Assembly (NCBI GenBank): GCA_964016885.1
Contig: CAXHJY010001557.1
Location: forward strand, 1 to 28,436
From: Eledone cirrhosa
Lineage: Eukaryota
Direction of reading: 5' to 3'
Length of the DNA stretch: 28,436 bases
Both the position numbers and the translations under genes were made by a program. The first letter of the stretch is position 1, and the number at the start of each line of letters is the position of its first letter. The notes below the pieces were generated by a model, which searched no databases, was not told where the DNA came from, and worked only from the letters and a program-made list of their open reading frames with translations. Positions 11,226-28,348 of the stretch are shown here, in pieces.

Positions 11226-11398
11226 TTAATATAGAAAAGCTTCAGTAGAAATCATCAGAAAGGTTTTCCCGATGATGTCTTCTACCGAATGAAACAGTTC
11301 TAGTCCTGTAGAAGCCTTTCTATATTAAATATTTACTCTTTGCCATGTATTGAGTACCTTATTTACTGTGGTTACCCCCGATTCAACGCGGGTTAAAC
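11226..11398 (+). mobile_element. Short HHR-bearing element (family B) with a partly deleted inverted arm; degenerate HHR at 11258-11320
   Basis: Stem I GAAAGGTTTTC/GAAGCCTTTC, core CCGATGA, GAAA-CAG-ttctagtc-CTG-TA. Upstream AGTAGAAATCATCAG is an inverted copy with a CTGATGA core. Homologous to 20765-20952. Confidence 0.65.
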
Positions 11399-11409
11399 TT
11401 ATATATATA

Positions 11410-11735
11410 TAGGAGAGTATTGAAGTTTGCTTGAAGCATTGTGGAACAATAAGTAAATATCTTTAAGTCGTTTGGAAGCCTCGACAATGCAAATGGGTAA
11501 ATCTCCGGGTAACAAGGTCCGGTGGTGGAGAGAGAGATGTAAGTGGGTGTACGTTGAGATGCGTGGTGTGTATAAGATGTGCGAGATGTGTAGAATGAAG
11601 GGAAGAGTATAAAGGATAAAATAAAAATAAAAATAACAACACAAGAGAGAGTTACCTTGGGAGAGATTTAATAGTCCCTATATATTTCGGATTCACATCC
11701 ATCAACTGGGCTTTTTTTCCGGGGTGGGGGAAAAA
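11410..11735 (-). mobile_element. Short element (family C) with an HHR-like motif at 11676-11710
   Basis: Minus strand reads CC-CAGTTGA-T-GGAT gtga ATCC-GAAA-tata-TA-GGG. Shares terminal ACAATGCTTCAAGCAAACTT with 17250-17270 and a similar end with 22590-22610. Confidence 0.55.
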
Positions 11736-11914
11736 AGATATATATATATATATATAAGCAAAAGAGATATTTAATTTGTTGGTAACTCAACAAATATATA
11801 TGTTTATAACTGATTCGAAGCACTCGACAAGTTTTCTGGAGTATACAATTAAGGAAAATTTGAACTGTTAATATCTTCTTCCTGGATATGTCAATATTTA
11901 TGAAACAAACTTTG

Positions 11915-11975
11915 TATTTTATCTGATGAGAGCGTACAAAAGTTTTGGCACCCTTGAAATATATATAATAGAATA
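11915..11975 (+). ncRNA. Type I hammerhead ribozyme (family D), stem II partly decayed
   Basis: TATTTTAT-CTGATGA-gagcgtacaaaagttttggcaccctt-GAAA-TATATA-TA-ATAGAATA; 8-bp stem I and palindromic stem III. Confidence 0.75.
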
Positions 11976-12099
11976 AATATAGTTTTATAAATATAGTTTC
12001 CATTTAATATCATTGTATATATATATATATATATATATATATATATATATATATATATATATATATATATATATATATATACACAGGGTGTACAAAAAT

Positions 12100-12288
12100 G
12101 TTTTAAATCAACATAACATGATATGTTGATTTAAAACTGCACTATTCACAAGTGTTTTTTAACCTTCATATCATGTCTCACTATTTTATCTGACAAAAAC
12201 GCAAATGTCATCTCATGATGATATTTGATTTTGAAATGCGCATAATAAAATACATGGAACTCTTTTAACCGTCTTTTGATCTTATATT
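12100..12288 (+). mobile_element. Family D element with a 5' fold-back (12100-12137) and a core-mutated HHR at 12182-12252
   Basis: TATTTTAT-CTGACAA-long stem II-GAAA-TGCGCA-TA-ATAAAATA. Dispersed copy of 16390-16555. Confidence 0.75.
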
Positions 12289-12574
12289 ATTTATGTATAT
12301 ATCTATATATATATATATATAGAGAGAGAGAGAGAGTGAGAGAGAGAGAGAGAGAGAGACAGACAGACGTTCCGATGTTTTCATATATATATATGTGTAT
12401 GTATAGAGAGAGAGACGTGTACATATACCAGCGATCTTCGTTAATTTTATATAATATATATATAGGTGTGTGTGTGTTATTTGTGACGTCATTGCCTCAA
12501 CTGTATCCTACGAAAATCTTAAATCCTACCGGAATGATTTCTTTCATCCAATGGCGGCCATCCTGTTTCCTTTG

Positions 12575-24556: not shown

Positions 24557-24718
24557 TATATCCAGGGAGACATTACTACAACAGAGGTCGGACGAGCTTT
24601 TGATTCCAGAGTCGGGCCAGGTCGATACAGATCGAACCTTGAGCTGATCAATCGCGAAACGCGCGTCACTAATCAATAAACGTCATGAAGTCTTAACAAA
24701 CCGTCCTTGTATTATTAT

Positions 24719-25758
24719 TATATATATACAATATATATATATATATATACAATATATATATACAAATATATATATATATATATATATATATATATATATA
24801 TATATATATACAATATATATATACAATATATATATATATATATATATATATATATATATATATATATATATATATATATATATACAATATATAGGTAGAG
24901 GGTATATACAATAGATATATACAATATATATATATATATACAATATATATATACAATATATATATATATATATACAATATATATATACAATCTATATATA
25001 TATATATATATATATATATATATATACAATATATATATACAATATATATATATATATATACAATATATATATACAATATATATATATATATATATATACA
25101 ATATATATATACAATATATTATATATATATATATATATATATATATATATACAATATATATATACAATATATATATACAATATATATATATATATATATA
25201 TATATATACAATATATATATACAATATATATATACAATATATATATATATATATACAATATATATATACAATATATATATATATATATATATATATACAA
25301 TATATATATACAATATATATATTATATATATATATATATATACAATATATATATACAATATATATATATATATATATATATATATATACAATATATATAT
25401 ACAATATATATATATATATATATATATATATACAATATATATATACAATATATATATATATATATATATATATATACAATATATATATACAATATATATA
25501 TATATATATATATATATATATATATATATACAATATATATATACAATATATATATATATATATATACAATATATATATACAATATATATATATATATATA
25601 CAATATATATATACAATATATATATATATACAATATATATATACAAATATATATATATATATATATATATATATATATATATACAATATATATATACAAT
25701 ATATATATATATATATATATATATATACAATATATATATACAATATATATATATATAT
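24719..25758. repeat. (TA)n microsatellite with higher-order CAA punctuation
   Basis: Recurrent CAATATATATATA-CAA(TA)n pairs. Confidence 0.95.
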
Positions 25759-25989
25759 GAAGTGATAAGGGAGGTGGGATGAAGGGGAGTGTGGTAGTGG
25801 TGAGGGAGGGCGTGGTGAGAGATGAGGGAAGCTCATTTAATTAGATGACTAACACATTTAATATAGAGTCAGTGTTTAATTAAGTAGACACCTGATGAAA
25901 GGGAGGAGGGGTAAGAGATGGGGGAGGGGGGAGGAGGGGGGGGAGGAGGCATATTTCTGATAATAAGGATATAGTGTGTTTGTACGGTT

Positions 25990-26723
25990 CTGTGGTAATG
26001 TGTGTGTGTGTGTGTGTGGTTGTGTGTGGTAATGTGTGTTTGTGTGTGTGTGTGGTTGTGTGTGTTTGTGTGTGGTTGTGTGTGGTAGTGTGTGTTTGTG
26101 TGTGTGTGTGTGGTAGTGTGTGTGTGTGTGTGTGGTAGTGTGTTTGTGTGTGGTTGTGTGTGGTAGTGTGTGTTTGTGTGTGTGTGTGGTTGTGTGTGTT
26201 TGTGTGTGGTTGTGTGTGGTAGTGTGTGTTTGTGTGTGTGTGTGTGGTAGTGTGTGTGTGTGTGTGTGGTAGTGTGGTTGTGTGTGTGTGTGTGTGTGGT
26301 AGTGTGTGTGGTAGTGTGTGTGTGTGTGGTAGTGTGTGTGTGTGTGTGTGGTAGTGTGTGTTGTGTGTGTGTGTGTGGTAGTGTGTGTGTGGTTGTGTGT
26401 GGTAGTGTGTGTTTGTTTGTGTGTGTGTGTGGTAGTGTGTGTTTGTGTGTGGTTGTGTGTGTGTGTGTGGTTGTGTGTGTGTGTGTGTGTGGTTGTGTGT
26501 GGTAGTGTGTGTTTGTGTGTGTGTGTGTGTGGTTGTGTGTGTGTGTGTGGTTGTGTGTGGTAGTGTGTGTTTGTGTGTGGTAGTGTGTGTGTGTGGTTGT
26601 GTGTGGTAGTGTGTGTGTGTGTGTGTGTGTGTGTGTGTGTGGTAGTGTATGTTTGTGTGTGTGTGTGTGTGTGTGTGTGTGGTAGTGTGTGTTTGTTTGT
26701 GTGTGTGTGTGTGTTTGTGTGGT
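25990..26723. repeat. Complex (GT)n microsatellite with GGTA/GGTT interruptions
   Basis: Direct inspection. Confidence 0.95.
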
Positions 26724-26740
26724 AATATTTGTATATGCGC

Positions 26741-27070
26741 CTCTCTTTCTCTCTCTGTCTGTCTGTCTGTCTGTCTGTCTGTCTCTCTCTGTCTCTTTCT
26801 TTCTCTCTCTGACTCTCTCTGTCTCTGTCTCTTTCTCTCTCTCTCTCTTTGTCTCTTTCTCTCTCTCTCTCTCTATCTCTCTCTCTCTCTGTCTCTATTT
26901 TCTTTCTCTATCTCTGTCTCTTTCTCTCTCTCTGTCTCACTCTCTGTCTCTTTTTCTCTCTCTCTCTCTCTCTCTCTCTCTCTCTCTCTCTCTCTCTCTC
27001 TCTGTCCTCGTTCTCTCTATCTCTCTCTCTCTCTCTCTCTCTCTCTCTCTCTCTCTCTCTCCCCCTCTCT
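26741..27070. repeat. (CT)n/(GTCT)n polypyrimidine microsatellite
   Basis: Direct inspection. Confidence 0.95.
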
Positions 27071-28137
27071 GTATTAGTATGTCAATGTGTCAGTACCAGT
27101 GTAGTTAAGTGTATACATTTGTTATGTGTATTTGTGTGTGTGTCCCTGTGTATGTATGTGTGTGTGTGTCTCTGTGTATGTGTGTATGTGTGTGTGTCTG
27201 TGTGTTGTGTCAGTGTAGTTAAGTGTATACCTTTGTTGTATGTGTGTGTGTGTGTGTCCCTGTGTATGTATGTATGTGTGTGTGTCCCTGTGTGTGTGTG
27301 TGTGTCTGTGTGTTGCTGTTGTTTAGCCCTAGATCAGGCTTGATCGAGATAAACTATGAACTAAAAGCATTCCAGTCGTGACAATTCCGCCATTTTGCAA
27401 ACCTCCTGTACCTTTGACTTCATTATGCATTGTGTCTTTTTTTTTTTTTAACACTGCTAGGGCATGATTCGAAACCGTGACCCACAGCCGAATGTTCCGC
27501 TGGAATATGGAGTCTCTAAATCATCTTTAGATAACCAAGATCTGATTTTAAGAAGATTTAGATTAAATGATTACCTAATTAACAGTTCCCCTGTCGCAGG
27601 TGTAGAACGAAGCAAATCTTATACGGTTGAAACCAATTTGATCAGTAATTTAAATACGATGGAGTGGGGGAGAGGGCGAGGGCGTTGGCTAATCAGGACA
27701 CGGAATTATATAGTTAACTTCTCATAATTCCCATTGAATTATTTTCTAATTAATCGCTAAAAGTTCTAATTAACAACCACGTGATGGACATTGATAATTA
27801 CATATTAGGTGCTTGACACGGCTCCCAGTTTCTTGAACTTTTTCACCTGATCCAGGGTAGTTCCCAATCACACGTGGAGTGCACTGTGCTGGTTTTCTTA
27901 AGAAGACGAGAGTCTCAGTCTTCGTAGCGCTGATTTTCAATCCCTCTTGCTTCTACTCAAATTTTCCCCTCCACTAAGACCCCCCCCCCCCCCCCCCCCC
28001 ATATTTTTGTATCACTACCCACCGTCAGGAAATCATATCTTGCTCACAGAAATTAACTAAAGAAGGTAACGAAACAAATCAATATATATATAAATATATA
28101 TATATATATATATATATATATATAATATATATATATA

Positions 28138-28348
28138 TAGAAGTGGTTACACAACAGTTAGTTCACCATACCGAGAACAATTGTTTCACCTTCGCGGATC
28201 TTCAGCTCGGGATGCTGAAGATCGCTAAGGTGAAACAGTTGTTTCTCGGTATGGCGAACTAACTGTTGTGTAACCACTTCTACCTAACTCGTCCCTTGGA
28301 CTGAGTGCTCTACCACTACGAATATTACCTTCCAGTGTTCCACCACTA
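28138..28348 (+). mobile_element. Fold-back element (arms 28138-28206/28214-28282) with an HHR core in both arms
   Basis: Plus strand: TCGGGA tg CTGAAGA tcgctaaggt GAAA CAGTTG TT TCTCGG. Minus strand: CTGAAGA tCC gcgaa GGt GAAA CAATTG TT CTCGG. Flanked by TA tracts. Confidence 0.7.

Follow-up and report, generated by a model that had tools for sequence, protein, structure and literature searches.

The window examined here is the whole of contig CAXHJY010001557.1 (28,436 nt), part of the 2.996-Gb, 1,796-contig genome of Eledone cirrhosa, and our subject is the series of islands lying between (TA)n tracts after position 8770, in which sequences related to hammerhead ribozymes recur. A full descriptor (CUGANGA, stem II, GAAA, stem III, UH and a stem I of at least 4 bp) recovers six intact type I motifs in 8771-28436, with cores at 11923(+), 14926(-), 16459(+), 18106(-), 18383(+) and 28205(-), and a one-mismatch descriptor adds two more at 12190(+) and 20899(+). 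This stretch holds 14 insertions from 12 families (A, A2, B twice, C twice, D, E, E2, F1, F2, G, H and J), eight of which are clearly two-armed, with the arms back to back and both 3' ends in (TA)n. The islands are best explained as the 5'-truncated 3' ends of at least ten families of Penelope-like elements (PLEs), together with a non-coding tandem element, that end in (TA)n and carry predicted hammerheads, and we place the probability of this reading at about 90%.

A first-pass annotation of this DNA had described some 14 hammerhead or hammerhead-like loci from several unrelated families. Sequence related to hammerheads, of varying quality, is present on the named strand at every one of the 14 places (15 motif positions), and 12 families are represented; these are not all unrelated, since A and A2 are kin, as are E, E2 and J, and B and C each occur in repeated copies. 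Inspection of the motifs reveals that the CUGANGA, GAAA and UH boxes are intact and in order in eight of them (11923, 14926, 16459, 18106, 18383, 21823, 28205 and 28215) and not intact at 11269, 12190, 15661, 20893/20899, 22771, 11706, 16975 and 17058. Stems I, II and III can pair in six of the eight: core 21823(-) retains an 8-bp stem I and a stem III with stem II unpaired in that copy, and core 28215(+) has a stem I of only 1 bp, its inverted twin at 28205(-) passing the descriptor. Five of the seven cores earlier called intact thus pass in full, and 21823 and 28215 do not; the motif placed at 28207(+) is the damaged plus copy of the sound one on the minus strand. Within the six passing motifs, a mismatch at 10.1-11.1 opens stem II in four. 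The motifs earlier listed as variant or partial are hammerhead-related as well, several of them being damaged or truncated copies. CUGACAA at 12190 marks a decayed family B copy, 93% identical to the family of 16459 over 168 nt; CCGAUGA at 11269 and UUGAUGA at 20899/20893 are altered copies of family C, whose longer copies read CUGAUGA; the 5' box is wholly absent at 15661 (family D); and 22771 (family J) reads CCGAAGA, like some other copies, while further copies read CUGAAGA. Positions 11706, 16975 and 17058 have one fixed deviant core in common.

Along the window, the series begins with a two-armed family C insertion at 11226..11401 (+), with its altered core at 11269, a predicted cut after 11310 and a long 3' end 89 nt past that cut, at (TA)n. 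The pseudo-long terminal repeat (pLTR) end of family E2 follows at 11411..11735 (-), where the deviant core GUUGAUG at 11706 is succeeded by stem II GAU-GUGA-AUC, GAAA and the palindrome AUAUAU. A two-armed family A insertion at 11756..12015 (+) has an inverted tail (11756-11850), a short end and an intact hammerhead at 11915-11975 (+; core 11923, predicted cut after 11967), and the older family B copy occupies 12086..12303 (+). The 3' end of F1, a PLE assigned by its motifs to the Hydra clade, spans 14745..15045 (-) and includes an intact hammerhead at 14936-14859 (-; core 14926, predicted cut at 14869). In the two-armed family D insertion at 15571..15757 (-), the arms are joined inside stem II and the UUGAGAA box of full copies is absent. 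The second family B insertion, likewise Hydra-clade by motif and two-armed, lies at 16283..16561 (+) with an inverted tail at 16283-16372; its intact hammerhead at 16451-16521 (+; core 16459) has a 16-bp stem II, the palindrome AUGCGCAU and a predicted cut after 16513. Family E, a Nematis-like PLE, left a two-armed insertion at 16794..17280 with GUUGAUG at 16975(-) on the short arm and 17058(+) on the long arm.

A truncated unit of F2, a non-coding 522-bp tandem element resembling a retrozyme, lies at 17860..18117 (-), with an intact core at 18106(-), the palindrome ACUAAUUAGU and a predicted cut at 18037. The two-armed insertion of family G (Hydra-type) at 18178..18564 (+) has its intact core at 18383, a stem II region of 100 nt, the palindrome ACGAUCGU and a predicted cut after 18501. 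Family C recurs as a palindrome at 20766..20947, its long arm on the minus and its short arm on the plus strand, both with UUGAUGA cores; the arms meet at the border of stem I and core, and UUGAUGA at 20899 arises at this junction. The long arm of A2, the sister of A, spans 21628..21912 (-; core 21823 intact, stem II unpaired), and J, a sister of E, spans 22579..22790 (-) with its core at 22771. The two-armed insertion of family H (Hydra-type) at 28140..28346 occupies both strands, with a sound hammerhead on the minus-strand short arm (core 28205, predicted cut 28176) and its damaged twin on the plus-strand long arm (core 28215).

The motifs were compared with shuffled sequence, as the first-pass annotation had proposed. 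In 44 non-microsatellite islands (11.3 kb) the full descriptor finds five intact motifs, against a mean of 0.03 and a maximum of 1 in 60 dinucleotide shuffles; the count is five and not six because one motif spans a masked tract. With one core mismatch allowed, seven motifs compare with 0.33 in shuffles. A genome sample of 99 evenly spaced 10-kb stretches (989.6 kb) yielded 130 intact motifs from 33 families, spread over 46 of the loci, where shuffles gave one each. The palindromic stem III remarked upon earlier is seen in the window and is perfect in 92 of the 130 sampled motifs, and the placement of islands between (TA)n tracts also holds, with (TA)4 within 300 nt downstream of 111 of the 130 as opposed to 28% of random positions. 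Chance matching in AT-rich sequence could account for the roughly 5% background of a general whole-genome pattern and for the 9 of 50 sample matches to it that fail the structure test; as an explanation of the islands it is refuted by the ratios of 5 to 0.03 in the window and 130 to 1 in 990 kb, and by reversed-pattern controls of 0-78 for family patterns. Among the best 150 of 456 Rfam matches on the window, only the 469-bp array at its start is identified as hammerhead (HH9, 37.7 bits, under the gathering score of 52), the top-ranked matches being microsatellite noise.

To identify the source of the islands, nine families were searched genome-wide at the DNA level, which gave 644-2,231 first-look candidates per family. 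The best 40 scored copies of each are 93-100% identical and spread over many chromosomes; their 3' ends abut (TA)n and their 5' ends are variable and often inverted. These multi-copy families bear out the earlier suggestion of a retroelement population, as does the search for open reading frames (ORFs), which was run by extending copies: 10 of the 12 families are traced to predicted ORFs for reverse transcriptase (RT) plus GIY-YIG endonuclease (EN), seven of Hydra type and three Nematis-like. The family B ORF lies upstream on the hammerhead strand in L011 (duplicate L012), where an inverted pLTR of 520 bp is followed in order by the 5'-truncated end of an RT, the linker CNCPVKTKC, a GIY-YIG-like domain, an untranslated region (UTR) and the hammerhead pLTR. 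The F1 ORF is found within 1.5 kb upstream on the hammerhead strand in 7 of 30 loci, and about 1.25 kb upstream on that strand in six of eight extended loci; its motifs are RWK, DKT and YRDD (L182, L183), plus CxCx5C, CxxC and CxH. RWK and DKT are seen in F1, the ORFs of B, C, D, G, H and A2 being visible only from the RT end or EN onward. The CxCx5C linker is present in B, F1, G, H and A2, and the CxxC and CxH end, with no CCHH, in B, F1, G, H, C, D and A2. Upstream ORFs on the hammerhead strand were found for G in 15 of 25 loci (of which four belong to a single segmental repeat) and for H in 5 of 25; for D, an upstream ORF is present in 2 of 11 full copies. A Hydra-type EN lies upstream in one of 11 long copies of C (L339) and one of 46 copies of A2 (L052), and pieces of Hydra-type ORFs occur in 15 of the 99 random 10-kb loci.

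The Hydra clade is defined by RWK, DKT, CxCx5C, CxxC and CxH without CCHH (Craig et al. 2021, PMC8557442). Families B, C, D, F1, G, H and A2 resemble it in motif set, 3' hammerhead pLTR, (TA)n target, inverted 5'-truncated copy and one-sided tail, and are assigned to it by motifs as predicted Hydra-clade PLEs. Their tails measure 66-133 nt, compared with 30-40 in the clade paper (PMC8557442). That paper's supplement lists Hydra-1_Obim from Octopus bimaculoides, with a (TA)n preference, and in a by-eye comparison F1 reads much like this element as printed there. In the Atlas, the F1 protein has look-alikes with scores of 0.96-0.99, part of whose members carry HTH_animal, GIY-YIG or RVT_1.

The remaining three ORF-bearing families belong to a second group. 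Pieces of ORF occur in 10 of 10 extended family E loci, chosen for long TA-free flanks, and L175 holds an open 877-aa ORF in which Pfam recognises RVT_1 (E=6e-11) and GIY-YIG (E=2e-4). ORFs lie upstream of E2 in L279, L178 and L269, the L279 protein being 55-68% identical to that of family E, and upstream of J in L052 and L280. All three have RT plus a C-terminal GIY-YIG, GxKF, DKG and CCHH, with GPKF in L174 and L189 and GPEF in L175. In the supplement alignment of PMC8557442, they resemble the Nematis clade in GPKF, DKG, a Cys linker before VVY, a CxxC inside the EN and two later His residues; unlike Nematis, their linker is Cx4Cx6C and falls outside the Cx2-5CxxC of Nematis/Neptune type (PMC8557442). 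We consider E, E2 and J Nematis-like PLEs only, a grouping by EN alignment. F1 and E proteins give no significant BLASTP match to each other (best E 0.07), which marks them as distant clades.

Two kinds of sequence show no such linkage. No ORF is linked to F2 in 30 loci, and its 522-bp units stand in tandem; both F2 and the 469-bp array are built of tandem non-coding units that each hold a single type I hammerhead, as are metazoan non-LTR retrozymes (Cervera and de la Pena 2020, PMC7229834; Li et al. 2026, 10.64898/2026.07.22.740005), so that by unit structure they appear retrozyme-like. Their units exceed the 170-400 nt of retrozymes and fall within the preprint's range of 51-972 (10.64898/2026.07.22.740005). 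Family A is represented by a copy at L317 with L376 (C7:62.786-62.789 Mb) made of two 1.1-kb non-coding inverted arms with no ORF, because of which this family may be a long non-autonomous PLE derivative. Such cases, with other arrays of 420-480 bp, invite the alternative that the islands are independent non-coding retrozymes or units like short interspersed elements (SINEs), spread as RNA circles and found near PLE ORFs through shared targeting. This is very unlikely, as it fits only F2 and perhaps A. In B, F1, G, H and E, ORF and hammerhead share a strand, their distance is constant within each family and no TA tract intervenes; sequence continuous from ORF through UTR to hammerhead is found in independent loci for five families, and the copies show the inverted 5' pLTRs typical of PLEs. 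A PLE origin of metazoan non-LTR retrozymes has itself been proposed in print (PMC7229834; 10.64898/2026.07.22.740005).

The 3' ends of the copies are informative about insertion. Two modal 3' ends, 41-133 nt apart, occur in all nine families tested, for instance at +17/+97 from the predicted cut in D, +36/+102 in H and +34/+112 in F1. Of 90 divergent pairs of copies, 80 are classifiable, and 76 of these join a long to a short end, with two short+short and two long+long; when C and D, whose queries favoured that layout, are left aside, 39 of 43 pairs are long+short. The motif GAGYRC is present in six of nine tails (A, B, C, D, F1 and H), 20-35 nt past the short 3' end and often in a small hairpin, with examples in the window at 11350-11360, 16335-16345 and 28300-28310. 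A similar motif is printed near the end of the coral element Hydra-2_Amil (PMC8557442 supplement), and we regard GAGYRC as a candidate enzyme signal. The points at which arms join are family-specific. In D, 40 of 58 long-arm copies, at loci outside the retrieval of the D query, are inverted within stem II, and exact patterns count 31,025 3' halves against 2,875 5' boxes, a rough ratio as the pattern lengths differ; in C, inversion is seen in 20 of 36 copies, for the most part 32-45 nt ahead of the cut site. Family A shows clustered 5' ends, which were not counted as evidence because they may be borders of subfamily homology. The nearly identical short palindrome of many C and D copies could also suggest fold-back DNA transposons, or elements of the miniature inverted-repeat type, inserting at TA. 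This is extremely unlikely, given that the two arms have unequal fixed ends, that junction sequences and arm lengths vary among copies, and that the same sequence stands un-inverted at the end of long ORF-bearing elements.

Considered as PLE 3' ends, the islands suggest the following course of events. The GIY-YIG endonuclease would cut the (TA)n tract, and the RT would start at one or the other of two fixed positions, which lie 10-200 nt downstream from the hammerhead. Each of the two DNA ends is likely primed at a site of its own, which would leave the arms back to back, one with the long end and one with the short; that both ends of the cut tract are primed is the simplest reading of the pairing. 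A hairpin would often be the joining point of the arms, and in families C and D that hairpin belongs to the hammerhead. Further copies would land in earlier insertions and in new TA tracts, in which case TA-rich stretches would fill with many families, and the non-coding tandem element is likely moved in trans by the same PLE enzymes. With start sites just behind the hammerhead, even very short insertions would carry it, often twice, which could explain the high motif count with no need for host selection for cleavage. An anole PLE, Poseidon_Ac, offers a precedent in vitro: two internal start sites bound its tail, and the enzyme, a predicted dimer, cuts and extends both strands (Frangieh et al. 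2024, PMC11167929). It likewise has an AT-rich target and a protein-assisted hammerhead; the available text reports no use of different sites by the two arms of one insertion, and the long+short rule described here is genomic and comes from other clades (PMC11167929).

The predicted hammerhead would cut the element RNA as a dimer or with the help of protein. Short palindromic stem III points to dimer cleavage, which has been proposed for PLE hammerheads, with low activity in vitro (PMC4209133), and the self-duplexes of B, C, F2 and G have energies of -9 to -13 kcal/mol, those of A, A2 and F1 about -1 to -3. In folding, motif 16451 (B) beats all shuffles (z -3.8). The U-U mismatch at 10.1-11.1 in C and H has an active precedent (PMC3088659).

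Several observations weigh against the interpretation of the islands as PLE ends with working ribozymes. The ORF links of C and A2 come from single copies, and family A has no linked ORF in 60 copies or two extended loci. Pfam recognised no Hydra-type ORF (none of six pieces significant), and for this reason the Hydra-type RT and EN call relies on motifs, the Atlas and the published alignment. Long/short pairing could come from a single priming event followed by repair. Six other motifs fold with z of only -0.4 to -1.9, and the monomers of 14859 and 18032 take a structure other than the hammerhead at their lowest energy. Finally, mutants of the anole PLE hammerhead left in vitro insertion unaffected and no RNA reads ended at the cut site (PMC11167929), and on this account many motifs may be passengers.

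Two core variants bear on the same question. Family D has the known U3-A8 core, UUGAGAA in full copies, with the 5' box absent in about nine of ten copies. The E motif reads CCC-CG-UUGAUG-GGC-GUGA-GCC-C-GAAA-UA-UU-GGG and that of E2 CCC-AG-UUGAUG-GAU-GUGA-AUC-C-GAAA-UAUA-UA-GGG. Two pairs of stem II differ in both of their bases and the odd core is retained, between families whose proteins are 55-68% identical; as a single pair of subfamilies, this covariation is thin. Both fail a test for CUGANGA or a known variant, yet keep a hammerhead-shaped fold. The GUUGAUG core without A9 has 4,023 exact pattern matches (in the 100 listed, the core is fixed by the pattern) and also occurs in young copies with an open ORF. 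A permuted hammerhead was considered for the E motif and rejected, with no CUGANGA within -400/+300 nt in L175 or L279. The sister family J has a normal core (CUGAAGA copies) plus the extra A of minimal PLE hammerheads. The E-type motif may be either an active variant or a dead signal, and families D and E suggest that cleavage may be dispensable for spread.

The islands share much with PLE pLTR hammerheads (Cervera and de la Pena 2014, PMC4209133). In both, the motifs are of type I with a short palindromic stem III, a genome holds many families, most copies are truncated and solitary, and pairs on opposite strands stand 100-700 bp apart; the U3-A8 variant (here family D) and an extra base after A9 (here family J) are shared as well. 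The islands differ in that stem II here reaches 36-116 nt, unlike the hammerheads in the available text of that paper, which does not describe the GUUGAUG core of E and E2, and in number, with 2,000-9,000 per genome there and at least 184,000 here (PMC4209133).

The genome-wide load was estimated with exact patterns for three disjoint stem III classes, which count 134,983 (reversed control 6,288), 44,623 (42) and 10,529 (0). Net of background, there are about 184,000 intact-core motifs genome-wide, most of them probably PLE tail ends lodged in TA repeats. These patterns ignore pairing, and 92 of 105 pattern matches in the sample passed the structure test; the calibrated total, adding the 38 sampled motifs outside the three patterns, is about 272,000 (229-320k), on top of which come exact matches to U3-A8 (2,875) and to the deviant GUUGAUG core. 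Tandem arrays inflate a plain extrapolation from the sample (345k from 59 loci; 394k, 269-539k, from 99 loci), which was therefore not adopted: for two patterns with true counts of 44.6k and 10.5k it gave 124k and 42k, although it held for dispersed families (69.6k predicted, 65.3k counted). The very high genome-wide count that had been anticipated is thereby borne out. Published counts include more than 6,000 hammerheads in coral and about 5,000 in mussel (PMC7229834), about 9,000 in Xenopus (PMC4209133) and, the highest we found, 126,247 in the 28-Gb axolotl genome (PMC7229834; 10.64898/2026.07.22.740005). The predicted count here is more than any animal figure found in the literature searched, a comparison that is rough because descriptors differ; in density, 60-90 motifs per Mb stand against about 4 per Mb for axolotl.

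The window itself had been called a hammerhead hotspot. A special locus far richer than the rest of the genome might be inferred from its six intact motifs in 19.7 kb (about 300 per Mb, versus 131 per Mb sampled) and from the 53 of 99 sampled loci that hold none. At least three motifs are nevertheless present in 16 of the 99 loci, and a random pair of 10-kb loci reaches at least six in 12.6% of draws (P=0.126 for 20 kb). Motif count tracks the number of TA tracts (Spearman 0.61, n=99), with a mean of 2.9 per 10 kb in the TA-richest quarter and 0.13 in the poorest; by its TA tracts the window ranks above the 90th percentile. A true local hotspot is accordingly quite unlikely: the window is TA-rich but unexceptional for this genome.

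The motif class is known in kind, and its scale is what we did not find in print: 184,000 counted and some 270,000 estimated motifs in 3.0 Gb top the axolotl figure, in a genome one-tenth the size. The Hydra PLEs have been described as a small clade, with 'a small number' of families outside Cnidaria and one listed from Octopus (PMC8557442); here at least seven of their families occur in one window, and they are a major resident of this genome. Ribozymes go unmentioned in the main text of a repeat annotation of Octopus vulgaris from 2026 (PMC13282606). With at least 30 families that offer young copies, open ORFs, two mapped start sites and core variants, the role of the PLE hammerhead becomes testable, as does the origin of inverted, tailed insertions. 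A joint reading would unite the most hammerhead-rich animal genome, a dimeric Hydra-type enzyme that primes both (TA)n ends at two RNA sites with the cDNAs joined at ribozyme hairpins, and a Nematis-like GUUGAUG core without A9 that is an active variant or a dead enzyme signal; we offer it tentatively, and think it rather doubtful that all of its parts hold together.

Other features of the window can be added. Positions 1..8770 (+) hold a retrozyme-like array of 18.7 copies of a 469-bp non-coding unit, 99% alike, with a type I hammerhead (stem III CUAG) in each; relatives of 466-467 bp form arrays elsewhere in the genome. Long hammerhead arrays with periods of 556, about 476 and about 422 bp are also seen in the random 10-kb samples L048, L285 and L304. 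Contig C825 matches window positions 8784-26412 at 91-97% identity, and in the array's place (L015:5940-9200) it carries a near full-length, frameshifted Hydra-type PLE with RWK, DKT and a 130-bp direct repeat; the same TA tract has hence received different elements. A tail-only fragment of family D lies at 8862..8985 (+). Outside the window, one F2 unit in L185 (C9:20814300-20821000) sits within a decayed helicase-bearing element with the look of a Helitron; the Helitron-like sequence upstream of one F2 copy was considered as part of F2 and rejected as host DNA.

Between the hammerhead islands, four copies of a 180-bp repeat, 75-97% alike, occupy 19583-20213 and 22125-22310, presumably resembling the common octopus SINE, and one copy holds a 60-bp internal palindrome (19887-19946). 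A 214-bp fold-back (86%) at 22796-23009 has a CA/TA/TG microsatellite at its centre and shows no hammerhead boxes. The islands at 15865-16184 and 20480-20696 are related by subterminal similarity and are possibly a short DNA transposon family. A dispersed repeat is present in two copies (70%) at 23230-23381 and 24368-24553, and a purine-rich minisatellite with periods of about 25 and 92 nt spans 18689-19287.

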